DNA of 64,000 nucleotides, from assembly GCA_963809485.1 (NCBI GenBank), contig CAWEJX010000006.1:32001-96000 (forward strand). The letters are read 5' to 3'. The notes below the pieces were generated by a model. The model was not told where the DNA came from. It made no database searches and saw nothing but the letters and a program-made list of their open reading frames with translations. Both the position numbers and the translations under genes were made by a program. The stretch comes from an uncultured Acidobacteriota bacterium. GTDB lineage: Bacteria > Acidobacteriota > UBA6911. This document shows, in pieces, positions 1,880-15,250 of the stretch. Numbering within the stretch: position 1 is the first letter of the stretch; each line of letters begins with the position of its first letter.

Positions 1880-3925
1880 TTGAAGGAAAGGCAGCTGATA
1901 AGCTCGATCTGTCCTTACTGTGGATGTGGCTGCGGATTGTATCTTTGTGTTGAGGACGGAGTAGCCAAGAACATAGAATACATGGAGGACCATCCTGTAA
2001 CCGGAGGGGCTCTCTGCCCCAAGGGCAACGCCGCACTCGAGGTGATCTATCACCCGGAGCGGCTCCAATATCCAATGAAGAGACAGGGTGGTGATTGGGT
2101 AAAAATCAGTTGGGAAGAAGCGCTCGGCATGCTGGCGGATCAACTGGCGCGCATCCAGAAAACCCACGGCGCCGACGCCCTGGGCTTTTTGGCCTCAGCG
2201 AAATGCACGAATGAGGAAAATTACCTTTTCCAGAAATTAGCCCGGCTGATCGGCACAAACAATATCGACCACTGCGCCCGCCTCTGTCATGCCCCCACGG
2301 TGACCGGCCTGGTCTCCACACTGGGAAGCGGGGCGATGACAAACCCCATCCCCGACATCATCAACGCGAACTGTATTCTTATTATCGGCGCAAACCCCGC
2401 CGAGGACCATCCGATCATCAGCGGATGGATCTGGGACGCCAAGGAACAGGGCGCCAAGGTCATCGTGGTGGATCCGCGGCACACGCCCACCGCCTGGATG
2501 GCGGATAAATTCATTCAACTGAAACCAGGCACCGACATCGCCCTGATCAACGGCATAATCCACGTCATCCTCAAAGAGGGGCTGTATAACAAAGAGTTTG
2601 TGGAGGCGCGTACCACCGGTTTTGCCCAGATCCAGGAGCTTGCGGCCAAATACGATCCGGCGAGTGTCGAGAAGCTCACGGGCGTACCGAGCCATCAGCT
2701 TGAAGAGGTAGCCCGGCTTTATGCAAAATCGGCGGCCTCCTCAATTATCTACTGCATGGGGATTACGCAGCATTCCTCGGGGCACCAGCACGTTGTCAGT
2801 CTGTCCAATCTGGCGTTGATCTGCGGGCACATAGGGCGGCCCGGGACGGGCATGTTGCCGCTCAGGGGGCAAAATAATGTTCAGGGCGCTTGCGATATGG
2901 GCGGCTTGAACTCTTTCTTCCCCGGTTATGTGCGGGTTACAGATGAAGAGGGCAGAAGGCGGTTGGCCGAAAAATGGGGCGCAAAAGGCTTGCCTGGCGA
3001 ACCGGGGCTCACCGTGGTTGAAATGATCAATGCCGCCGGCGAAGGCAAAATCAAGGGCATGTACATCATGGGGGAAAACCCCGTTATCAGCGATCCGGAC
3101 TCCAATCATGTCGAAGAAGCTTTGAGCCGGCTCGAGTTCCTTGCGGTTCAGGACTTGTTCCTCTCCGAGACCGCCAAGCTGGCGCACCTGGTCCTTCCTG
3201 CTGCCAGCTGGGCGGAGAAGGAGGGGTCGTTTACGGGAACGGAACGGCGCGCCCAATGGATGCACAGGGCCATTGAGCCTCAGAGCGGCACCAAGACGGA
3301 CTGGCAAATCGTCAGCGAGGTCGCTAAAAGGCTGGGCTTCAATTTCAATTATGCCGGTCCACAGGATATCCTAAGGGAGATAAATGGGGTTGTCCCACAA
3401 TACGCCGGGATCACTCCGGAACGGATTTCACACCGGATAGGCGGCCTCACATGGCCCTGCCCTACCCCCGAACATCCCGGCACGCCCATTCTGCATGTTG
3501 AACGGTTCGCGACCCCGGACGGACTGGGCAGATTGATTCCGGTCGAGTATAAACCACCGGCGGAGGAAACAAACAGTGAGTATCCCCTGTTATTGACCAC
3601 CGGGCGGGTAGTGATGCACTACAACTCCGGCTCCATGACCAGGAGAAGCAAGGCCCTGCTTAAGCGAAGCCCCGGTCTGTTTGTCGAGATCAACCCGGGC
3701 GACGCCGAAACAGCCAAAATTAAAAACAATGAGGAGGTAAAAGTGCTGACCAAGCGCGGTGAGGCTTCGGCTGTGGCCAGCGTCACCGACAAGGTGCCTC
3801 CCGGCATAGTTTTCGTGCCTTTCCACTTTGAGGGAGCCAATGCCCTAACGATAAGCGCTTTGGACCCTGTAGCCAAAATTCCGGAATATAAGGTTGCCGC
3901 CTGCCGCATTGAAAAGAGGTCATAG
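1880..3925 (+). CDS. fdhF: Formate dehydrogenase alpha subunit (Mo/W-bisPGD, FdhF-like), Cys at the catalytic site
   Basis: CPYCGCGC 4Fe-4S motif, GTNNIDHCARLCHAPT (TGT codon at the Sec/Cys position), PLRGQNNVQGACDMG, molydopterin-binding C-terminus IPEYKVAAC; no Tat signal; GAGGAGG RBS before a TTG start. Confidence 0.93.
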   Translation: MKERQLISSICPYCGCGCGLYLCVEDGVAKNIEYMEDHPVTGGALCPKGNAALEVIYHPERLQYPMKRQGGDWVKISWEEALGMLADQLARIQKTHGADALGFLASAKCTNEENYLFQKLARLIGTNNIDHCARLCHAPTVTGLVSTLGSGAMTNPIPDIINANCILIIGANPAEDHPIISGWIWDAKEQGAKVIVVDPRHTPTAWMADKFIQLKPGTDIALINGIIHVILKEGLYNKEFVEARTTGFAQIQELAAKYDPASVEKLTGVPSHQLEEVARLYAKSAASSIIYCMGITQHSSGHQHVVSLSNLALICGHIGRPGTGMLPLRGQNNVQGACDMGGLNSFFPGYVRVTDEEGRRRLAEKWGAKGLPGEPGLTVVEMINAAGEGKIKGMYIMGENPVISDPDSNHVEEALSRLEFLAVQDLFLSETAKLAHLVLPAASWAEKEGSFTGTERRAQWMHRAIEPQSGTKTDWQIVSEVAKRLGFNFNYAGPQDILREINGVVPQYAGITPERISHRIGGLTWPCPTPEHPGTPILHVERFATPDGLGRLIPVEYKPPAEETNSEYPLLLTTGRVVMHYNSGSMTRRSKALLKRSPGLFVEINPGDAETAKIKNNEEVKVLTKRGEASAVASVTDKVPPGIVFVPFHFEGANALTISALDPVAKIPEYKVAACRIEKRS

Positions 3926-3927
3926 AG

Positions 3928-4431
3928 GTGAAGAAGGTTCTTTACATTGATATAAAGCGCTGTATCTATTGCCGCTCGTGTGAGGTTGCCTGTGAGCGTG
4001 AGCATGAGGGGCATTCACATATGAATGTTGTGCCTATCCATGGAAGGCACGCTGTCCCGATGAATTGCCGCCATTGTGAAAAGCATCCGTGCCTGACGGT
4101 TTGTCCAACGAAGGCCATCACGCGGGAAGAGGGCGGTCCTGTCATCATCCACACCATGAAATGCATCGGCTGCCGAATGTGCGCCATGGTGTGTCCGTTT
4201 GGGATTCTCAACTTTGACGTCCTTGGACGAGTCATGCGGAAATGCGACCTGTGCATTCATCGCCTCAGCGAAGGCAAAAACCCCGCCTGTGTCACCACCT
4301 GCCCGGCTCGCGCGTTGGTATTTGATGACTTCGATTCGATAATGTCGAGAACCAAGGAGAAAGCAGCCCACGCTGTAATCAGCGGAGTGGGGTCACAGCC
4401 GGGTACGGTGATCATCCCACCGAAAGGCTAA
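3928..4431 (+). CDS. 4Fe-4S dicluster electron-transfer subunit (HycB/HyfA/HydN-like)
   Basis: CIYCRSCEVAC, CRHCEKHPCLTVCP, CIGCRMCAMVCP, KCDLC...PACVTTCP. Confidence 0.9.
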   Translation: MKKVLYIDIKRCIYCRSCEVACEREHEGHSHMNVVPIHGRHAVPMNCRHCEKHPCLTVCPTKAITREEGGPVIIHTMKCIGCRMCAMVCPFGILNFDVLGRVMRKCDLCIHRLSEGKNPACVTTCPARALVFDDFDSIMSRTKEKAAHAVISGVGSQPGTVIIPPKG

Positions 4432-4459: not shown

Positions 4460-6148
4460 ATGCTGTTTTATGCAAGATACCAAAAAAGTGCTGTCGTAAG
4501 AGAATCGGTTGACCAACTCGTCCGGAAATTCCCGCAAGCCGTTCTCAAAACCGAAATGGTGGATTCACAAACCGTTTCCGTAAACATAATCCCCTCCGCC
4601 ATCCAAGGCGTTTGCAAAGAAATTTACGACCAGGGCGCCCGATTTGTCTCCTCCGCGGCTACCGATCAGATCAGGAAAAACAACACGCTCGAGCTTAGCC
4701 ATTTCTTTTCTTTTGATGAGGAGCACCTGACCTGTATCGTCAAGACCCAGATCGATGCTGCAGCCCCATCGGCCCAATCCATTTCCTCCATTATCCCGGG
4801 GGCAAACTGGGCCGAGCGTGAATGCCAGGATCTGTTGGGGATTGAATTCGTTGATCATCCGGATTCAAGAAGACTCATTCTGGCCGATGATTGGCCGAAA
4901 GGGGTTCATCCGCTAAGGAAGGATTTCCCTTATAACTACAAGCCGCCATCGGCGCCCGAAAACGCAGTCATCCTTAAGGCGCCGGATCCCCCGGCAAGTG
5001 TCGTGCCAATCGGCCCGTTCTACCCGGTCCTCGAAGAACCGGCATATTTCAGGGTTTTCGTCGAAGGCGAAAAGATAACCGGTTGTGATTATCGGGGATT
5101 CCACAATCACCGGGGCATTGAAAAGTTGGGCGACAGCTCGATGACCTATAACGAGGTGTGCTTTCTCGCAGAGCGCATATGAGGGATATGAGGATATATA
5201 CACAGTACGTGCTACTGTGAGGCCATCGAAAACGCAGCAAACATAGAAGTCCCCCAAAGAGCCCGCTTTATCCGGACTCTGCTCCTGGAGCTGGAAAGAA
5301 TCCACAGCCACCTTCTCTGGCTTGGTATCGCCGGGCATATCATCGGCTTTGACACGATCTTGATGCAGGCATGGCGAGTGCGCGAGCCGATAATGTGGCT
5401 TTGCGAGCTCATCACCGGCAATCGCAAAACCTACGGCATGAATCTGGTCGGGGGCGTGCGGCGGGACATCACCAAGGAGCAAAAGCCCAAGATCCTTGAA
5501 GTCGTCGGCAAAATCGAGTCCCAGCTGAAGGAGATCATCGACGCTATTCTGGGTGACACGACTCTCCATCTGCGGCTCAAAGACGTGGGGGTTCTGACAA
5601 AAGAAACCGCGCGGCAATTCTGCCCCGTCGGTCCAACGGTGCGTGGTTCAGGCATTGCCATCGACAGCCGTGTGAACCACCCCTATGCGGCTTATTCAGA
5701 AATACCGCCTCAGGTAATAACCCAATCGGAGGGAGATATCTGGGCGCGAACCATTGTCAGACTGCTGGAAACGCTCGAATCTGTCAACATGGTAAGGCGA
5801 GCCGTGCAGGAAATGCCCGGTGGCGAGATTATGGCGGACGTCCAGGAAATCCCCCCCTGGCAAGAGGGCATCTCATACATCGAGGCTCCGCGCGGGGAGT
5901 GCATGCACTATGTGATAACGGGTCCCGATAACCGGCCTCACCGATGGCGCGTGCGGGCGCCCAGCTATATGAATCTGCAATCCGTTCCTGCCATGCTTAT
6001 GGGGTATTCCATCGCGGACGCGCCCATAATCATCGGCAGCATCGATCCGTGCTTTTCCTGCACCGAGCGGCTTGAGGTGGTGGACACCAGAACCAATAAG
6101 GCTAGGATTTACACCCAGAAAGAATTGCTGGCGCTCAGTAAGAGATAA
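4460..6148 (+). CDS. hycE: Group 4 [NiFe]-hydrogenase large subunit (HycE/HyfG-like, NuoC+NuoD fusion) with two in-frame TGA codons, predicted Sec241 and Sec244
   Basis: ORFs 4460..5182 and 5360..6148 share a frame and are joined by FLAERI*GI*GYIHSTCYCEAIE...ELERIHSHLLWLG. C-terminal motif DPCFSCTER is followed by a cleavable tail. 562 aa with read-through. Confidence 0.92.
5201..5219 (+). promoter_or_regulatory. Putative bacterial SECIS hairpin
   Basis: Perfect 7-bp stem CACAGTA/TACTGTG with loop CGTGC (G at loop position 2). The loop starts 16 nt after the second TGA and 25 nt after the first. Confidence 0.75.
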
Positions 6149-6153
6149 GAACC

Positions 6154-6675
6154 ATGCTGCTAAGCAAACTCAAAGAGGCGCTGATCTGTTTTAAAAACCT
6201 GCGGGTGACCTTGCCTTACCCCTTCCAGCCTGCGCCGCCTCCTCCGGGATTCAGAGGACGGGTGGAGGTTGACATCAATAAATGCATCGGTTGCGCCGCC
6301 TGCGCCGTAGCTTGCCCGCCAAAGCTGATTGACATCAAGGACCTGGATGGCAAGCGCATCCTTGAGTTTCGGATGGGGAGATGCACCTACTGTGCCCGGT
6401 GCGCCGAGGTCTGTCCCACAGTCGCCATCACCATGACCCCGGACTTTGAACTGGCTACCGATAACAAGGCCGACCTGAACATCAGCGTGGAGTTAAACAT
6501 GGTGAAGTGCGAGCACTGCGGAGATGCCTTCACCACCCAGCGCATCATGCACAAGCTGGTGGCTGAAGCGTCCAAAGAATTGGGCATGGAACCTGCCGAC
6601 ATGAAGTGGCTCCATTTATGTCCCGAATGCCGCGTTGCTTCGGAGGTTGAAAAAATGATGGAGGCGGAAAGCTAA
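6154..6675 (+). CDS. hycF: Hydrogenase Fe-S subunit (HycF/HyfH/NuoI-like)
   Basis: TLPYPF...FRGR, CIGCAACAVACP, CTYCARCAEVCP, C-terminal CEHC...CPEC. Confidence 0.88.
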   Translation: MLLSKLKEALICFKNLRVTLPYPFQPAPPPPGFRGRVEVDINKCIGCAACAVACPPKLIDIKDLDGKRILEFRMGRCTYCARCAEVCPTVAITMTPDFELATDNKADLNISVELNMVKCEHCGDAFTTQRIMHKLVAEASKELGMEPADMKWLHLCPECRVASEVEKMMEAES

Positions 6676-6678
6676 GGC

Positions 6679-8145
6679 ATGAATGGCTTAATGGCAAGCC
6701 TCATACTAATACCGATGGCAGGGGCTTTCCTCAGCTATCCCTTAAAGTCCCGTACGGGCGACAGGATACCGGCCCTGGCGGCCGGTATCACTTTTATTAT
6801 CGCGATCGTCTCAATAGTTTTGGGTTATCCCCGCACGAACCAAACCTTCGTAGGCCAACTCCCCTGGCTTGAAACCAAAGTCCAGCTCTTTGGATTTCTT
6901 CTGGATCCCCTAAGCTCATTAATGCTTATTGTAATCACCGCCATCGGCGTGCTGGTGGTTATCTATTCCTCCGAATACCTGAGCCCCAGAAACAAAGACC
7001 ACGCATATTCGGAGGCTAAAGGGAGTTACTACTTCTGGCTGCTGTTGTTTATTGGTTCTATGGTGGGTATCGCGGTCTCCCCGAGTTTTCTGCAGCTTTT
7101 TATGTTCTGGGAGATGACCACCATGTGTTCCTGGGCGCTCATCTCTTACCATAAGGACAGCAAGTCCCTGTTTAGCGGATTCAAGGCACTGCTTTTGACT
7201 CACCTGGGCGGTGCAGCGCTTCTCACCGCCCTGGCGATTCTTTTTGTGAACACGGGATCGCTGGCCTTCAACGCCCTGGACAGTCTGACGCCCAATACGA
7301 GATTGGCTGTCTTCCTGTTGATTGTGGTAGCCGCCTGGGCCAAGGCGGCTCAGATTCCGTTCTACACCTGGCTGCCCGATGCCATGGCAGCTCCGACGCC
7401 GATCAGCGCCTATCTTCATGCCGCTGCTATGGTCAAGGCGGGCGTTTACCTGGTAGCGCGGGTGGCCGTATCGAATGCCGAAATCCCTCACACTGGGGGA
7501 ATGATATTGGGCATCATGGCCGTGATCACCATGATTGTGGCCGTCATCATGTACTTTTTCCAAGACGACCTGAAACGGCTGCTTGCCTTTTCCACCATCG
7601 GGCATTTGGGCTATATCCTCTTTGGCGTCTCGCTTGGAATCATGGGCTCCAACACCGGCCTGCAAGGCGGCATTCTGCACATTATCAACCATGGCTGCGC
7701 CAAAGGCCTGTTGTTCCTGTCCGTCGGCGCTATAGCCTATGCTACGGGTTCCAGGAGCATAAAGGAGTTGAGTGGTCTGGGCAGCAAGTTGCCCGTGATT
7801 TCAATGGGATTTATCATCGGCCTTTTTGCCGTGACCGGAGTGCCGCCCCTCTCCTGTTTCTGGAGCAAGTTTATGATGTTCACCGGCGCTTTTGAAATTG
7901 GCGGAGTTGCCGGACCCGTTATGGGAGTGCTGGCGATAGCGGAAAGTCTGGCGGCCTTCGCATGGTACCTGCTGGTGGGACAAAAAGTGTTTTTTGGAAA
8001 AGTTTCGGAAAGGGCGGATACGGCTACCAGGAATATTTCACCGCTGATTACCGTGCCGCTGATCATTCTGATGGCATTATGCTTTTTGGCGCCCTTGATC
8101 GGATGGCCGTTCGTGCAATATCTGAAGATAGGAATATTTCACTGA
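6679..8145 (+). CDS. hyfD: Hydrogenase-4 antiporter-like membrane subunit D
   Basis: FWEMTTMCSWALISY, KALLLTHLG, AWAKAAQIPFYTWLPDAMAAPTPISAYLHAAAMVKAG, closely resembling HyfD. Confidence 0.85.
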   Translation: MNGLMASLILIPMAGAFLSYPLKSRTGDRIPALAAGITFIIAIVSIVLGYPRTNQTFVGQLPWLETKVQLFGFLLDPLSSLMLIVITAIGVLVVIYSSEYLSPRNKDHAYSEAKGSYYFWLLLFIGSMVGIAVSPSFLQLFMFWEMTTMCSWALISYHKDSKSLFSGFKALLLTHLGGAALLTALAILFVNTGSLAFNALDSLTPNTRLAVFLLIVVAAWAKAAQIPFYTWLPDAMAAPTPISAYLHAAAMVKAGVYLVARVAVSNAEIPHTGGMILGIMAVITMIVAVIMYFFQDDLKRLLAFSTIGHLGYILFGVSLGIMGSNTGLQGGILHIINHGCAKGLLFLSVGAIAYATGSRSIKELSGLGSKLPVISMGFIIGLFAVTGVPPLSCFWSKFMMFTGAFEIGGVAGPVMGVLAIAESLAAFAWYLLVGQKVFFGKVSERADTATRNISPLITVPLIILMALCFLAPLIGWPFVQYLKIGIFH

Positions 8146-8167
8146 TGAATCCACAGGGAAGCAGGCT

Positions 8168-10234
8168 ATGGGCCCAGTAGTGTTTTTATTTATCGGATTT
8201 CTGCTTCTTGTTGCAGGGGCTGTGCTGGCCATGGCGACCCATCGGTCGCGTTTGGTTTGCTCATGGCTTTCTTTTTCCTTCGTTTTGCCGGCGGCAGGGT
8301 GTTTTCTGTATCTGGCCATCCTGGTCTTCACCCATGGCCCGATTACGATGCCCGCGCCGTTGCTCGTCCTGCCTGGAATTGGAGCCGGTCTCACCATTGC
8401 TATTGATCCGCTCTCGGCTCTGCTGCTTCTAATCGTGGGCATAATTTCCACGTGCACGACCCTTTTCTCAGTCAAATACACACTGCGCTATCAGGGTGAA
8501 TCGCTGATTCGCTATTATCCTTTCCTTTTGCTGCTCTTTGCTTCTATCGTCGGCGTTGTTTGCACCCGCGACATGCTTTTCCTCATCGCCTTCTGGGAAA
8601 TAATGACCCTAACCTCTTACGCCTTGGTGGTGTTTGAGCGGGGCAACACGGTCGGCCTGAAAGCGGGATTCACGTATTTCCTGGCGACTCACATAGCTAC
8701 TGCCTGCCTGATCATTGCGGCGATTATGCTCTATATCAGAACACCGGCGCCGCACTCGTTCGCTTTCGAGAGTATCAGCGCATCGCTTGGAACAATGATG
8801 GCGGCTCATTCTGGCCTGGCCCATCTGGTTCTGGCTCTGTTTTTCATCGGTTTTGTCACCAAGGCGGGCGTTCTGCCTTTCGGCTTCTGGCTCCCGGACA
8901 CCTATCCCGCGGCGCCCAGCGGCGCCTCAGCGGCCTTTGCGGGAACCATGACCAAGCTGGGTGTCTATGGCGTGGTCCGTGTTTTCTGTGAGATTCTGCC
9001 CATATCCCATCATTCTTACGTATGGGGACAGGTCATTGCCGTTTTGGGCACTCTCTCCATTTTTGTCGGCACCCTGTCGGCCCTGGTTCAAGATGACTCG
9101 AAGAGACTCATGTCCTTCCATGTTATCGGGCAGATCGGATATATGCTTCTCGGAATCGGCCTGGGCGTATTTTTGCTGCCGGTGAATCCGCCTCTGGCCA
9201 CGATAGCGCTCGTCAGCGGCATCTTTCACCTGCTCAACCACACGATGTACAAGTCGTGCCTCTTCCTCAATGCCGGCTCGATTCTTTACCGGACGGGGAC
9301 TCGCGATTTGAACAAGGTCGGCGGGTTATTGAGAATAATGCCGTTCACGGGGGCTACCGCTATCATCGCGTCGTTATCGATTGCCGGCCTTCCGCCTTTC
9401 AGCGGCTTTTCCAGCAAACTGCTCATTTTTGAAGCCTCTATAATAAGCGGAGTAGGATCGCCCCTTTTTATTGTCCTCGGCCTGATTGCCATCTTTATTT
9501 CAGCGGTCACGCTGGCCTCTTTCCTGAAGTTCCTGAACACCGCTTTTTTGGGGAAACTTTACGCCGAGGGAGGGATAAATGATCTAAAGGATGTCCCTCT
9601 CTCAATGAAAATACCTCAGGGCGTGCTGGCTTTCCTGTGCATCTTTTTTGGTGTGGTGCCCCTGTTGCCCATCCGGATGATACACAGCGCGGTCAGCTCT
9701 ATACTGCCGGCAAATTACTCGCCGGCGGCGGGCTCTCTCTTTGGAACATCCATGCCCGGGTTTAGCCTGGATCTGGGGCAGGGAGTTTTTGGCACCTGGA
9801 ATCCCCTTTGGGCTTTGATTGCCATTACGATCCTTTTTGCTTTTGGGTTCCTGATATCCAGGGCCGGGGTAGCACGGAAAAGGGAGGCAGAGACGTGGTA
9901 CGGGGGCAGGGATCACGAGGTGGAACATGTCCGCTACCCGTCGCACAGCTTCTACATCCCTTTCAAACAGCTGTTTTCCTTTACTCTTGGGAATACCAGG
10001 TTTGAAGGGATGTACCCCAAGTCCCTCGAATTGCCCAAGTTGGCCGTGCCCGGTGGACTAAAAGCGGTGCTGGATATCGACCGCTGGCTCTACTATCCCT
10101 TTGTCAGCGGCTTTATGAGGCTGAGCCGGTGGTTCAGCCGAATCCATGTGGGAATACCGCAGGTCTATGTGTTATGGATCATCATGGGAGTAATCGCCTG
10201 TATCATCGTTCTTTTCCTGTTGCCGGCGAATTAA
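8168..10234 (+). CDS. hyfB: Hydrogenase-4 antiporter-like membrane subunit B (HycC/HyfB-like)
   Basis: 688 aa polytopic protein; KAGVLPFGFWLPDTYPAAPS, GLPPFSGFSSK, C-terminal amphipathic arm with HVGIPQVYV. Confidence 0.82.
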   Translation: MGPVVFLFIGFLLLVAGAVLAMATHRSRLVCSWLSFSFVLPAAGCFLYLAILVFTHGPITMPAPLLVLPGIGAGLTIAIDPLSALLLLIVGIISTCTTLFSVKYTLRYQGESLIRYYPFLLLLFASIVGVVCTRDMLFLIAFWEIMTLTSYALVVFERGNTVGLKAGFTYFLATHIATACLIIAAIMLYIRTPAPHSFAFESISASLGTMMAAHSGLAHLVLALFFIGFVTKAGVLPFGFWLPDTYPAAPSGASAAFAGTMTKLGVYGVVRVFCEILPISHHSYVWGQVIAVLGTLSIFVGTLSALVQDDSKRLMSFHVIGQIGYMLLGIGLGVFLLPVNPPLATIALVSGIFHLLNHTMYKSCLFLNAGSILYRTGTRDLNKVGGLLRIMPFTGATAIIASLSIAGLPPFSGFSSKLLIFEASIISGVGSPLFIVLGLIAIFISAVTLASFLKFLNTAFLGKLYAEGGINDLKDVPLSMKIPQGVLAFLCIFFGVVPLLPIRMIHSAVSSILPANYSPAAGSLFGTSMPGFSLDLGQGVFGTWNPLWALIAITILFAFGFLISRAGVARKREAETWYGGRDHEVEHVRYPSHSFYIPFKQLFSFTLGNTRFEGMYPKSLELPKLAVPGGLKAVLDIDRWLYYPFVSGFMRLSRWFSRIHVGIPQVYVLWIIMGVIACIIVLFLLPAN

Positions 10235-10238
10235 AGGA

Positions 10239-11147
10239 ATGAGATTTGTAATTGGCATCAGCATATTAAACCTGTTTGTCGCCCTGGGCCTTTCGCCGCT
10301 GTTTGAGGGCCTGGCCAGGAAACTCAAGGCCCTGGTGCATTCCCGCATCGGCCCGCCCGTAATCCAGCCCTACTACGACTTGCTGAAACTGGCAGGGAAA
10401 GAAGACCTCCAGCCGAAGGGCATGCCTTTCGCCCGGTTTCTTCCCGGGATTTGCTTTGTTACGGTGGCTGTGGCAGCCCTATTCGTACCGATGGGCACCG
10501 GCAGAGCTCCCCTGGGAACCGCCGGGGATTCCATGTTCTTTATCTACATCGTTACTTTGGTTGCCGTAAGCATGATCATGACCGCGGCGGCGTCGGAAAA
10601 TCCGTTCTCTTATATCGGCGCATCGAGGGAAGTGATGCTGCAACTGACGGTGGAGCCGGTGATGGTGATCGCCCTGGTCACGGCTGCCTTGAATGCCCGT
10701 TCCTTCGGTTTTGGTGATATGGTGGATTGGTATCACTTCAGCGGTCCCTCGATTTCAATGATCATCGCCACAATCTCCCTTTTCCTGGCGCTTCAGGCAC
10801 AGGTAGGCAAGCTGCCTTTTGACATGGCTGAAGCTGAAACTGAGATAGCGGGCGGATTATTTATCGAGCAAAGCGGTCCCAAATACGCGCTTCTGCGGTG
10901 GACGATGATGGCGAAGCAGGTCATCTTCGCCTCCCTTTTCGTGCAAGTTTTCATCCCCTGGCCGAGAACGGGGAATCTGGCTTGGGATGTCCCAATTCAC
11001 CTGGCCAAGGTTCTTGTGTTGGTGGCGATCATCAGTGTCATCGATACGGTCAATCCCCGGCTCAGGATTGACCAGGCAGTGAGATATTATCTGATATTGG
11101 TTTTCTTCTCACTGGCCGGTATTGCCTTTGCCGTTATCGGCGCCTAG
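10239..11147 (+). CDS. hyfC: NuoH-like membrane subunit (HycD/HyfC)
   Basis: SRIGPPVIQPYYDLLKL, IGASRE, KLPFDMAEAETEI. Confidence 0.88.
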   Translation: MRFVIGISILNLFVALGLSPLFEGLARKLKALVHSRIGPPVIQPYYDLLKLAGKEDLQPKGMPFARFLPGICFVTVAVAALFVPMGTGRAPLGTAGDSMFFIYIVTLVAVSMIMTAAASENPFSYIGASREVMLQLTVEPVMVIALVTAALNARSFGFGDMVDWYHFSGPSISMIIATISLFLALQAQVGKLPFDMAEAETEIAGGLFIEQSGPKYALLRWTMMAKQVIFASLFVQVFIPWPRTGNLAWDVPIHLAKVLVLVAIISVIDTVNPRLRIDQAVRYYLILVFFSLAGIAFAVIGA

Positions 11148-11167
11148 ATTGACAGAGGAGACCAAGG

Positions 11168-11848
11168 ATGGTTGAGAGCATTGCTCTGGGGGACTTCATT
11201 GTCACCCTGTATCTGATCCATTTTGGATTTTCGCTGCTTGCGGCCGAGCTGCGCAACCTGAAATGGTCTGTCGCTGCTATCGTGGTGCAATCCCTGACGT
11301 TATCCGGCATACTCATTACTTTCGCCAGCATTGGGTCCAACCCCTCATTGTACTGGTGGGGTTTTACTACACTGGGAACCAAGGTCTTCGCAATTCCCTA
11401 TTTGTTGTGGCTTTATATCCGTCGTTTGCCGACCGCCGAGACTCGTCCGTGGCTGGGAACAATTCCTTCTGTGGGAGTTATGCTGGTTCTTGTTGTTGTA
11501 TTCTACAACTTCCTGCATACCCATGTGGAATTTATCGCCCCCAGCCTGGAGGCAGCCCTTGAGCCGGCCAGGTCGAATCTGGCGCTTTCTTTAACAATTT
11601 GTGCCTTGGGATTGTGGGTGCTTCTGGTGCGGAGGGATGCTGTCAAAGCCGTCATCGGCCTGGTCTTGTTGGAAAACGGCGTTCACCTTGCGCTGGTGAC
11701 CCTGGCGCCTACCTTACCTGAGACCACGCTGATCGGCATCGTCACCAATGTCATCATTACCGTTTGGCTCCTTCTGTATCTTGCGGGCAGGATTTTCAAG
11801 GTTCTGGGGACGACCGACACCGCGGTGCTGTCCGAACTGAAGCATTAG
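11168..11848 (+). CDS. hyfE: Hydrogenase-4 membrane subunit E (NuoK-like C-terminus)
   Basis: TKVFAIPYLL, VIGLVLLENGVHL, TTDTAVLSELK. Confidence 0.85.
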   Translation: MVESIALGDFIVTLYLIHFGFSLLAAELRNLKWSVAAIVVQSLTLSGILITFASIGSNPSLYWWGFTTLGTKVFAIPYLLWLYIRRLPTAETRPWLGTIPSVGVMLVLVVVFYNFLHTHVEFIAPSLEAALEPARSNLALSLTICALGLWVLLVRRDAVKAVIGLVLLENGVHLALVTLAPTLPETTLIGIVTNVIITVWLLLYLAGRIFKVLGTTDTAVLSELKH

Positions 11849-11863
11849 CCGAAAAATGGAATA

Positions 11864-13375
11864 ATGGAAAGCTCAAGAGAAGTAACCTCTATATTGCCGG
11901 TTCTGGTATTTGCATTGCCCGCAGGCGTCGCCATCCTAATTTTCGCTCTCGGGCGGTTGCACGCCATCTTCCGTGAAGGCCTTGCCCTTTTAGGCCTGGC
12001 AGCCACATTTTTGGTCTCGCTGGCCATCTCAGGGCGGGTGCTGCACGGGGAACTCCTGATAGCCTGGGGACGCAATCTGTATGTCGACGGGTTGAGCGCT
12101 CTAATGGAGACGCTCGGCTCCGCTATGGCCATAATAATTGTCTTGTACTCTACCAGGTACTTGACACAGCACCAGATCGGCATGCCGCTGAATCCTTGGC
12201 GGCACACATATTTTTATGGGTTGCTGGTACTGTTTGTGGCTACTCTCAATTGGACTTGTGCCACCAACAGCCTTATCTGGATGTGGGTCTCGCTGGAAGC
12301 AACCACGCTCACATCGGCGCTTCTGGTGACCTTCTACTGGAAACGGGAATCCATGGAGGCAGGATACAAATACCTGCTTTTGATAAGCGTGGGAGTGACC
12401 CTGGCGCTGTTGGGCTGCGTCCTTATTTACGCGGCAGCCATTCCGCTTCTGCCGGGACCTCATGTGATGCTTCTCACTGAAATTGGCAGGATCGCCAAAA
12501 TGATGCCGGAAAGCGTTGTGCTGATAGCCTGCGCCATGTTTGTGGCGGGTTTCGGCACCAAGGCGGGACTTATCCCGTTTCATGCCTGGCTTCCCGACGC
12601 CCATTCCGAAGCGCCGGTTCCTGTCAGCGCGCTGCTCTCCGGCGTGGTGATCAAGATCGGGGCTTATGCCCTTGCGCGCACCGTTACCATTTTCGCTCCC
12701 CACTATGCCGCTGTGGTCCTCTTCGTCGCCATTCTGGCCTCGGTCAGTATGGTGATCGGCATCGTCATGGCGCTGGTTCAGGACGATCTCAAGAGGCTTT
12801 TAGCCTATTCCAGCATCAGCCAGATTGCCTATGTGATTGAGGGTCTGGGACTGGGCACCTACCTGGGAATCTATGGCGGGCTATTTCACATGGTCAATCA
12901 TGCCATCGTAAAGGCCTTGCTGTTCCTCTGCGCCGGAGCCTTGATGTACGCCGCCGGCACGAGGGAAATAAGCAAGCTGGGCGCGGTGGCAAAAAAAATG
13001 CCGGTGACCACGTTTTGCTTTTTCGTCGGCGCCCTTGCGATTGGGGGTATGCCGCCGTTCAACTGCTTTATGAGCAAGGTGACGATTTTCTTTGCACTGG
13101 CCGAGCGAGGAATACTCTGGGCTGCAATTATAGGAATAGCGACGGGAATACTCACCGTGGCCTGTTTTGCCTGGACTGCCTTCAGGATATTCTGGCAGAA
13201 GCCGACGGCGGAACCGAATCCTGACACAGAGGTGAAGCAAGTGCCGGTCCTCATGCAGGCCAGCATGCTGGTTTTGGCGTTTGCTTGTATTCTTTTAGGG
13301 ATCTATCCCCGAATGCTCTATCCCGTGTTGAACACCGCTACCGAAAGCATACTTAGAATTTTAGGGGCAGGGTAA
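11864..13375 (+). CDS. hyfF: Hydrogenase-4 antiporter-like membrane subunit F
   Basis: MWVSLEATTLTSALLV, EAGYKY, GFGTKAGLIPFHAWLPDAHSEAPVPVSALLSG. Confidence 0.87.
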   Translation: MESSREVTSILPVLVFALPAGVAILIFALGRLHAIFREGLALLGLAATFLVSLAISGRVLHGELLIAWGRNLYVDGLSALMETLGSAMAIIIVLYSTRYLTQHQIGMPLNPWRHTYFYGLLVLFVATLNWTCATNSLIWMWVSLEATTLTSALLVTFYWKRESMEAGYKYLLLISVGVTLALLGCVLIYAAAIPLLPGPHVMLLTEIGRIAKMMPESVVLIACAMFVAGFGTKAGLIPFHAWLPDAHSEAPVPVSALLSGVVIKIGAYALARTVTIFAPHYAAVVLFVAILASVSMVIGIVMALVQDDLKRLLAYSSISQIAYVIEGLGLGTYLGIYGGLFHMVNHAIVKALLFLCAGALMYAAGTREISKLGAVAKKMPVTTFCFFVGALAIGGMPPFNCFMSKVTIFFALAERGILWAAIIGIATGILTVACFAWTAFRIFWQKPTAEPNPDTEVKQVPVLMQASMLVLAFACILLGIYPRMLYPVLNTATESILRILGAG

Positions 13376-14267: not shown

Positions 14268-14768
14268 ATGCTGAAATCTCTGATCCAAAAGATAACAGGA
14301 AAGGCTTTCACGAAGGCACTCTGGGTTTACCATGTCAACACAGGGGCCTGCAACGGATGTGATATTGAGGTCATTGATGTCTTGACTCCTTATTACGATG
14401 CGGAACGGTTTGGGATCAAGCTGGTAGGTTCGCCCCGGCAGGCCGATGTCCTTCTCGTTTCCGGACCGGTGACTCGACAGATAGCCTCAGGCCTCCTCAA
14501 AGTATATGAGGCTACGCCCGAACCCAAGCTGGTCTTTGCCATCGGCTCCTGCGCAATCGACGGGAATATTTTTCATGACAGCTATAACGTAATCGGCGGC
14601 GTGGACAAGGTAATTCCCGTGCATTTATACATCCCCGGTTGTCCCCCACGACCGGAGGCTATCCTTTATGGCGTGGCCCAGGCCCTGGGCCTGGTGCCCA
14701 AGAAGGTTAAAGCAGTCCGGTTGACGCAGGAAGGCGATGGGGCGCCCGCCAACTTGCCCCCGAAATGA
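14268..14768 (+). CDS. hycG: Hydrogenase small subunit (HycG/HyfI/NuoB-like)
   Basis: NTGACNGCDIE, SPRQADVLLVSGPVT, GSCA, IPGCPPRP. Confidence 0.92.
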   Translation: MLKSLIQKITGKAFTKALWVYHVNTGACNGCDIEVIDVLTPYYDAERFGIKLVGSPRQADVLLVSGPVTRQIASGLLKVYEATPEPKLVFAIGSCAIDGNIFHDSYNVIGGVDKVIPVHLYIPGCPPRPEAILYGVAQALGLVPKKVKAVRLTQEGDGAPANLPPK

Positions 14769-15250
14769 AGACACTGGAGTCGCTGTTTCGGAAAATGGGC
14801 CCCAAGTTTGTGCTGCTGGGCGTGGGGAATCCCTTACGCGGAGATGACGGCGCGGGACCGGAATTATTGCGACGCCTCAGGAACAAAACGAGCGCCATCC
14901 TGCTTGATTGCGAAGAAGTTCCCGAAAACTATCTTGGTGAGATCGCGGCAATTCAGCCTGAAACCGTTGTTGTCATTGACGCCGTGAATCTCGGAACCGG
15001 AGCCGGTGCGGTAGCGCTATTGGAAGAAGACAACTTCCAGTCCATCGGCTGGTCGACACACCATGGTTCCCTGAGAGCGCTGGTCCAATATATTAAGGCG
15101 ACCACACAGGCTGAGGTTTTCGTTCTGGGAATCCAGCCGAAGTCGACAGAACTGGGCGGCGAGCTAAGTCCCGAGGTCACACAGACGATTGACCTATTGC
15201 AGGAGATCATCACAACGCATTCTGTTTCAGGTGAACCGCCCCGTCTCTAG
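14765..15250 (+). CDS. hycI: Hydrogenase maturation endopeptidase
   Basis: GVGNPLRGDDGAG, EVPEN, IDA, STH motifs; ATGA overlap with the upstream gene. Confidence 0.9.
   Translation: MKTLESLFRKMGPKFVLLGVGNPLRGDDGAGPELLRRLRNKTSAILLDCEEVPENYLGEIAAIQPETVVVIDAVNLGTGAGAVALLEEDNFQSIGWSTHHGSLRALVQYIKATTQAEVFVLGIQPKSTELGGELSPEVTQTIDLLQEIITTHSVSGEPPRL

Follow-up and report, generated by a model that had tools for sequence, protein, structure and literature searches.

Selenocysteine (Sec, U) variants of the group-4 hydrogenases have been described by Takano, Inoue, Aono, Ochi and Mihara (Front Microbiol, September 2026; PMC13582414), who reported 47 of them, 16 being of the UXXU type. The Sec is in the N-terminal motif in all 47, and the phyla represented include Acidobacteriota. 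In the group 4b genes the G in the loop of the selenocysteine insertion sequence (SECIS) is the third base of a Thr codon, ACG, and the core SECIS is identical in the CXXU and UXXU forms; the authors raise the possibility that both UGAs are decoded under one downstream SECIS (PMC13582414). The enzyme class and the one-SECIS hypothesis are thus already published. Here we describe a further case, found in a window of 64,000 nucleotides from an uncultured Acidobacteriota bacterium (contig CAWEJX010000006.1, positions 32,001 to 96,000). The gene for a HycE-like catalytic large subunit of a membrane-bound [NiFe] hydrogenase contains two in-frame UGA codons, UGA1 and UGA2, three codons apart and followed by a single hairpin. 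The hairpin is very probably a SECIS, and the best reading, which we favor with some reserve, is that both UGAs rely on it and both are read as Sec. The features discussed are collected in Table 1.

Table 1. Positions of the hydrogenase gene, its UGA codons and hairpin, the neighboring genes, and the second double-UGA gene (positions in the window unless a contig is given).
Feature	Position	Strand	Basis or remarks
HycE-like catalytic large subunit, group-4 membrane-bound [NiFe] hydrogenase	4460..6148	+	Translation, Pfam, solved relative
UGA1, first Cys of N-terminal Ni-binding CxxC (residue 241)	5180..5182	+	AUA before, GGG after
UGA2, second Cys of N-terminal Ni motif (residue 244)	5189..5191	+	AUA before, GGA after
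9-nt spacer from UGA2 to stem, GGAUAUAUA, Gly-Tyr-Ile; Tyr-Ile dicodon A/U only	5192..5200	+	Sequence
Candidate bacterial SECIS hairpin, 7-bp stem CACAGUA/UACUGUG, apical loop CGUGC	5201..5219	+	Sequence, RNAfold, pair counts
FdhA-like molybdopterin oxidoreductase subunit, Cys type, no in-frame TGA	1880..3925	+	PF04879, PF00384, PF01568
HycB-like 4Fe-4S ferredoxin subunit	3928..4431	+	Pfam Fer4_11
HycF-like 4Fe-4S subunit	6154..6675	+	Pfam Fer4_7
Membrane arm overall	6679..13375	+	PF00361, PF00146, PF00420
Three antiporter-like subunits	6679-8145, 8168-10234, 11864-13375	+	Pfam
NuoH/HycD-like subunit	10239-11147	+	Pfam
NuoK-like subunit	11168-11848	+	Pfam
Hydrogenase small subunit, NuoB-like	14268-14768	+	Pfam (PF01058 and PF01750 for 14268..15250)
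HycI-type maturation protease	14765-15250	+	Pfam (PF01058 and PF01750 for 14268..15250)
UGSC paralogue TGA-TGA, this genome	G000:C13:46038-46043 (L239:639-644)		Orthologues L241-L248

When both TGAs are read through, the large-subunit gene is a single frame of 562 codons that encodes a fusion of NuoC-like and NuoD-like parts, with Pfam matches to PF00329, PF00346 and PF00374 (NuoC-like, NuoD-like and NiFeSe_Hases domains). The closest solved structure is E. coli formate hydrogenlyase (FHL) subunit 5, HycE (7z0s_E, E-value 2.6e-134), in which both Cys of RVCGICGFAHST line up with the TGAs. The sequence from 5177 to 5200 reads ATA TGA GGG ATA TGA GGA TAT ATA, which gives the N-terminal Ni motif RIUGIUG in the context ERI-U-GI-U-GYIHSTCYCE, while the C-terminal motif DPCFSC retains its Cys. 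The combination of an N-terminal RxUGxU with a C-terminal CxxC matches the definition of the UXXU-type group 4b [NiFeSe] hydrogenases (Takano et al., 2026). The locus is like those described there in having Sec in the N-terminal motif only, an FHL-like cluster, and a SECIS whose loop G (G5209) lies in a Thr codon ACG as its third base (5207-5209); nothing essential differs. Assignment to group 4b is suggested by the gene cluster, by the detail of the SECIS and by the phyla to which the relatives belong. Downstream of the UGAs, the ratio of nonsynonymous to synonymous substitution rates (dN/dS) is 0.05-0.09 in comparisons with six relatives (dS 0.24-1.29), and it is therefore concluded that the downstream frame is under purifying selection and that translation proceeds past both stops.

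The hairpin is a perfect stem of CACAGTA (5201-5207) and TACTGTG (5213-5219) around the loop CGTGC (5208-5212). An earlier note on this DNA had placed it at these positions, with distances to the loop of 16 nt (UGA2) and 25 nt (UGA1), and both the positions and the distances agree with our own. The same note pointed to a common context ATA-TGA-GG at the two UGAs and to the number of ATA codons, which is indeed three of the eight codons in 5177-5200. The stem is separated from UGA2 by 9 nt and from UGA1 by 18 nt. The hairpin is retained in both the minimum free energy (MFE) and the centroid structures given by RNAfold for 5177-5260, but the fold of these 84 nt as a whole is unremarkable (z = -0.36). 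The isolated hairpin (21 nt) has an energy of -7.6 kcal/mol, and the variants with a 6-bp stem found among homologues have -4.5 kcal/mol. A comparable hairpin follows 91 of 19,948 Cys codons in the long open reading frames (ORFs) of the genome, which gives a chance rate of 0.46%. The stretch between UGA1 and the stem (5183-5200) has a G+C content of 33%, compared to 54% for the gene, a value that is equally low in 88 of 1672 windows of 18 nt in the gene.

The bacterial SECIS (bSECIS) model sets limits of 3-9 nt for the loop, 4-16 bp for the stem and an MFE of -7.5 kcal/mol or below, with at least one G at the first or second loop position and usually G or U next, and 16-37 nt from the UGA to the loop (PMC13188914). 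The hydrogenase hairpin has a 5-nt loop on a perfect 7-bp stem, with G as the second loop base and U next, and the loop lies within the distance range from both UGAs. The context also agrees, in that the in-frame UGAs align with Cys in homologues and the genome contains selA, selB, selC and selD. The best known element of this kind is that of E. coli fdhF, which according to a review has a minimal upper stem-loop 11 nt after the UGA, a bulged U17, and the loop bases G23-U24 (PMC8659212). As far as it is described there, it resembles the hydrogenase hairpin in its location within the coding sequence, immediately 3' of the UGA, and in having a loop G-U about 20 nt away and a presumed binding of SelB. 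By contrast, the stem in the hydrogenase gene is perfect, without a bulged U, and begins at 9 nt (UGA2) or 18 nt (UGA1) rather than 11, and its loop G-U is at nt 21-22 counted from UGA2 and nt 30-31 from UGA1. By analogy, the hairpin would function like the fdhF SECIS, although it is of a different sequence type. Other bacterial UxxU selenoproteins named in the literature are a Prx-like thiol:disulfide oxidoreductase, the metal-binding protein NF041115 and the FmdB-family protein TIGR02605 (PMC13188914), and UxxU selenoproteins are also found in the Global Ocean Sampling survey (PMC2398784). They share with the hydrogenase two Sec codons three apart and a coding-region SECIS that is necessarily just downstream. 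As described there, they are small redox or metal-binding proteins, whereas here the motif is a hydrogenase active site.

Homologues were collected with a metagenome scan that used a degenerate pattern fixing only the second TGA, with the Ile and Gly codons left free. The pattern matched 110 stretches, and all 80 that were fetched are homologues. Together with loci from genomes, there were 106 distinct sequences, namely 33 UxxU, 39 CxxU and 34 CxxC. UGA1 is thus kept as TGA in 33 distinct homologues and UGA2 in 72. Both TGAs, followed by an identical hairpin, are also found in one genome of the same genus (G001, 83% identity); other genomes of the genus provide 2 CxxU and about 10 CxxC forms.

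A hairpin is present at the same codons in all 72 distinct Sec forms, and mostly missing from the 34 CxxC forms. The earlier note had said that its proposal would fall if the hairpin were absent from the TGA-containing homologues or equally present in the Cys-only ones, and neither is the case. The mean local free energy is -4.2 kcal/mol in the Cys forms, compared to -6.9 and -7.5 kcal/mol in the Sec forms. There are four sequence types of hairpin (ACAGUA-N5-UACUGU, CACAGCAC-GGU-GUGCUGUG, GCAGU-AGUU-ACUGC and CUCCAC-CGGGUAU-GUGGAG), and in all 18 variants among the 72 Sec forms there is a G within the first two loop positions. Pairs were counted for the named structure, in place of an RNAalifold consensus. 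For the structure seen in the window, 89.1% of the alignment cells are paired in register, compared to 11-54% in controls in which one side was slid (67 distinct sequences).

Covariation of the stem had been proposed as a check. Changes on both sides are seen in two of the seven pairs, and the stem is almost invariant. In one lineage a synonymous change of AGT to AGC is coupled to a change from Tyr to Cys (TAC to TGC), and the base pair is restored. The codons of the stem are nearly fixed in the Sec forms (Ser AGT in 62/72, Thr ACG in 65/72, Tyr TAC in 66/72 and Cys TGT in 65/72), while the codon that lies wholly inside the loop varies between C, G, A, S and V. The Cys forms use AGC, TCC, ACC, GCC and TGC at the stem positions. 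The suggestion that the residues HSTCYC are constrained by RNA structure is therefore supported by the nearly fixed stem codons, the variable loop codon and the pair-restoring change. Since the hairpin is found in all Sec forms, is specific to them, and fits the set of SECIS elements of the genome itself (below), its identification as a SECIS is well supported, and the comparison of sequences makes it very probable.

The question of which UGA the hairpin serves was approached with a SECIS reference set built from the organism's own genome, using sites of the UGSC family (PF24696). This is a very large family of selenoprotein paralogues, with 58 matches in the genome, 41 of them with an in-frame TGA. 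Of the 40 sites with a single UGA, 26 have a stem beginning 10-13 nt after the UGA, and 29 have a loop beginning at nt 20-24 (the U of UGA being nt 1). The loop sequences are GGUC, GUU, CGUGA and AGUU, and CGUGA, at nt 21, is the loop type of the hydrogenase hairpin. The hydrogenase loop CGUGC starts at nt 20 from UGA2, which is canonical for this genome, and at nt 29 from UGA1, which is outside the main UGSC cluster but inside the bSECIS range. The hydrogenase and UGSC genes are alike in sharing the same SelB, in their loop types and, for UGA2, in the start of the loop; they differ in that the UGSC genes have one UGA per hairpin, with one exception discussed below. Within the UGSC family, a subfamily with the motif GxCTK[YF]L has a long SECIS stem starting about 10 nt after the UGA and an apical loop at nt 32-37. 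A regular expression detected no Cys-form motif in any of the 15 TGA-less UGSC matches examined (of 17).

No second conserved hairpin that could serve UGA1 was found in the homologues. A tree was calculated from 322 aligned columns downstream of the motif in 100 sequences, leaving out those with fewer than 250 residues. The UxxU and CxxU forms interleave on this tree: the UxxU label requires five changes on the best tree, of which at least three are forced by well-supported branches. Near relatives differ in having U or C at position 1 and yet share the hairpin (for example L145/L147 compared to L174/L130). Position 1 therefore switches between U and C with an unchanged hairpin, implying that gain or loss of UGA1 needs no new RNA element. 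Because of these switches, the lack of a second conserved hairpin, and the fact that both distances are in the bSECIS range, the best reading is that one SECIS serves both UGAs.

The exception among the UGSC genes is a paralogue with adjacent TGA-TGA codons (GG-U-U-GC), present in all nine orthologues found among 61 related genomes. The pair is followed by a single hairpin, GCGAUGG-GUU-CCAUCGC, which is 12 nt after the second UGA in eight relatives. In the present genome, this gene has an 18-nt spacer and lacks the Cys, and its frame ends at 291 codons compared to about 600, suggesting that this copy may be decaying. The gene shows that an arrangement of two UGAs ahead of one predicted hairpin recurs in the genus. 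When the genome was screened for paired TGAs, 62 candidates were obtained, but the hydrogenase and this UGSC gene were the only ones that looked real. A home-made genome-wide screen for read-through ORFs (2657 and then 153 candidates) was discarded as too noisy.

Several observations weigh against the reading of one SECIS for two UGAs. We know of no decoding experiment or read-out for any UxxU hydrogenase. The energy of the hairpin barely passes the bSECIS threshold (-7.6 compared to -7.5 kcal/mol or below). When 100 nt are folded, the MFE structure retains the hairpin in only 16 of 33 UxxU and 27 of 39 CxxU sequences, and RNAalifold found no consensus structure across the 72 Sec-type sequences. 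Covariation is thin: one of the seven pairs never varies, and four deviate only through unpaired cells. The Sec-type set was gathered with a pattern demanding TGA at position 2, which places UxxC forms outside its reach, and the Cys-type set comes from genome searches only and consists on average of more distant relatives. Stems that start 18 nt or so from the UGA are outliers among the 40 UGSC sites, and on inspection several of these outliers are long stems that really begin about 10 nt after the UGA. The minimal E. coli stem-loop is placed 11 nt from its UGA in the same review, compared to 18 nt for UGA1 (PMC8659212). Finally, a tRNA that reads UGA as Cys (tRNA-ReC, below) may have escaped, since the genome is 95.7% complete and ARAGORN can miss odd tRNAs.

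The alternative that survives best is that the hairpin is a SECIS for UGA2 only, and that UGA1 is read by near-cognate suppression (as Trp or Cys) or inefficiently by SelB, so that residue 241 would be mixed or not Sec. It would explain why the distance is canonical from UGA2 alone, the 18 nt from UGA1 being outside both the 10-13 nt of 26 of the 40 UGSC sites and the 11 nt of E. coli. CxxU forms with the same hairpin are moreover at least as common as UxxU forms (39 compared to 33), which shows that UGA2 alone is what the element arose for, or is enough for it to work. However, UGA1 is kept as TGA in 33 distinct sequences at dS values of up to about 1.3, and it has the same AUA-UGA-GGG context as UGA2 (ATA before it in 28 of 33 and GGG after it in 30 of 33). 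Residue 241 is a Ni ligand, for which Trp would hardly be workable, and leaky suppression would truncate most of the product of a large operon. The UGSC gene with UGA-UGA and one hairpin also indicates that a second UGA at a non-canonical spacing recurs in the genus. We therefore consider this alternative rather unlikely. A SECIS fused to helix h16 of the 16S rRNA was designed to direct Sec insertion in E. coli, which suggests that position at the mRNA entrance weighs more than exact spacing on the mRNA (PMC10945757). A literature search, in which the E. coli spacing is known via reviews, found no report of the AUA context or of a measured tolerance to a 9-nt shift.

A second RNA element could aid UGA1, either by pairing of GGGAU (5183-5187) with GUCCC about 65 nt downstream or by a weak pairing of AUAU with AUAU around UGA2. 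In the MFE fold of 5177-5260, positions 5180-5187 do pair with 5249-5256, the five pairs are complementary in 89% of UxxU cells compared to 6-72% when slid, and in the 100-nt folds of the UxxU sequences the partners of the UGA1 spacer cluster at +70 to +90. However, the complementarity is also 83% in CxxU and 71% in CxxC, the AU-only pairing of 4 bp is too weak to be stable, and such an element is not part of the bSECIS model. The lower stem GGGAU/GUCCC was accordingly rejected as a Sec-specific element, given that the Cys forms are complementary too; its complementarity is largely due to the conservation of Gly-Ile and Val-Pro codons. Help from a second element is thus improbable.

Another possibility is that one or both UGAs are read as Cys by a SelB-dependent tRNA-ReC (selC*), making the protein partly or wholly a Cys enzyme. 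Genes resembling tRNA-ReC are enriched in UXXU genomes, occurring in about 56% of them compared to about 2.3% of other Sec-type genomes, and reading of UGA as Cys was named as a limitation by Takano et al. (PMC13582414). The published counts name Armatimonadota, Desulfobacterota and JAPLJL01, but not Acidobacteriota (PMC13582414). The genome studied here differs from those UXXU genomes of other phyla in this respect, in that ARAGORN and Rfam found no tRNA-ReC-like tRNA among its 48 tRNAs, a negative that is not final because the genome is incomplete and ARAGORN may miss odd tRNAs. The anticodon UCA occurs only in tRNA-Sec, which scores 70.6 bits against Rfam and has the discriminator G, and both tRNA-Cys(GCA) are 76 nt long. 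The tRNAs of 80 nt or more are all Ser, Leu, Tyr or Sec, and the Rfam matches for tRNA-Sec all map to ordinary Ser, Leu, Tyr, Gly or Sec tRNAs. The protein components of the Sec machinery are recognized by scores of 391 bits for SelB, 565 bits for SelA and 346 bits for SelD. Decoding as Cys is on this evidence very improbable. The selD gene (G000:C8:80982-81905, L238) itself has one in-frame TGA and thus encodes a Sec-type SelD.

The idea of a pseudogene, or of a truncated 240-residue product, with a coincidental hairpin is suggested only by the gene callers, which split the gene at 5182, and is refuted as far as sequence data go by the low downstream dN/dS, the position of the stops exactly on two Ni-ligand Cys codons and their retention in 33 sequences, the intact operon with its small subunit and HycI protease, and the low chance rate of the hairpin, leaving it almost no probability.

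Taken together, the gene would encode an FHL-like group-4b catalytic subunit in which both Cys of the first Ni motif are replaced by Sec (U241 and U244). SelB carrying Sec-tRNASec would bind to the apical loop, presumably at G5209-U5210, and Sec would be delivered once a UGA occupies the A site of the ribosome. The hairpin would act on UGA2 at the spacing typical of the organism's other SECIS elements. The same hairpin most likely acts on UGA1, 9 nt further upstream, with the additional unstructured and A/U-rich RNA providing slack.

The codons around the UGAs show some regularities. ATA is the Ile codon preceding UGA in 89 of 105 cases, compared to 8 of 107 for the corresponding Cys codon, and GGG is the Gly codon following UGA in 77 of 105, compared to 18 of 107 for Cys; genome-wide, 16% of Ile codons (in long ORFs) are ATA and 20% of Gly codons are GGG. 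The contrast can be seen within single genes, since in the 39 CxxU genes the first Ile codon (before Cys) is ATC in 28, and the second (before UGA) is ATA in 37. In the two codons that separate Gly from His, the G+C fraction is 0.11 in the 33 UxxU forms, compared to 0.42 in the 39 CxxU and 0.39 in the 34 CxxC forms; in the UxxU forms they are mostly Tyr-Ile, as TAT ATA or TAT ATC. With phylogenetic control, the ATA and GGG contrasts reduce to 2-3 independent pairs, all in the expected direction or with no difference, too few for significance, and for this reason the counts of codon context are leads rather than findings. The base before UGA in the 40 UGSC sites is T in 26 and C in 14, so that avoidance of C before UGA is no general rule. 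A term search of the paper by Takano et al. (2026; PMC13582414) found neither the AUA-UGA-GGG context nor the A/U-only UxxU spacer in its main text. The details added here are these two and the adjacent UGA-UGA pair in the genus.

It is a matter for speculation that the AUA and GGG codons slow the ribosome before each UGA and that the spacer is a structure-free linker, so that rare AUA codons and an A/U-only linker would tune the double decoding. More fully, and as a tentative proposal that we think possible but doubtful, double-UGA decoding would be a tuned property: one hairpin would be used twice within three codons, AUA and GGG would slow the ribosome while a second SelB-Sec-tRNA loads, and the same machinery would read the UGA-UGA of the UGSC gene. 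If this is true, the strict 11-nt spacing rule of E. coli is not general, and these natural sequences provide a rule by which bacterial proteins with several Sec residues could be designed.

The genes surrounding the large subunit form a formate-hydrogenlyase-like cluster, which by Pfam matches includes a formate dehydrogenase subunit, ferredoxins, HyfC/HyfE-like and antiporter-like subunits, and the small subunit (Table 1). A gene for a phosphonate-type periplasmic binding protein (PF12974, 13382-14254) is located inside the operon, after the gene for the last antiporter-like subunit and before that for the small subunit. The FdhA-like subunit appears to keep Cys at what we take to be the Sec position of E. 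coli FdhF; if so, selenium is spent on the hydrogenase and not on formate dehydrogenase. No Sec-type formate dehydrogenase was found among the PF00384 matches of the genome. The only one of these to hold a TGA (C20:1207473) has no SECIS-like hairpin, and was rejected as a Sec-type enzyme. There is a second homologue of the group-4 large subunit in this genome (G000:C21:164216-165052), which is shorter, about 43% identical, and has neither the NuoC fusion nor a TGA. A shorter and TGA-less second homologue of this kind occurs also in many relatives.

The window adds one more well-supported UxxU case, from a genome that is fairly complete (95.7%) and has a rich Sec system. Since standard gene callers break the large-subunit gene at 5182, annotations of such genomes under-report the hydrogenase. 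The three sequence regularities (the AUA-UGA-GGG context, the A/U-only UxxU spacer and the UGA-UGA pair in the genus) could guide a reporter experiment. The case bears on whether one bacterial SECIS can serve two UGAs at different distances, on the spacing rule derived from E. coli, and on proteins with several selenocysteines. To our knowledge, no natural UxxU enzyme has been studied so far. The presence of selenium at both the bridging and the non-bridging Ni ligands of a proton-reducing membrane hydrogenase could alter its activity and its tolerance to oxygen.

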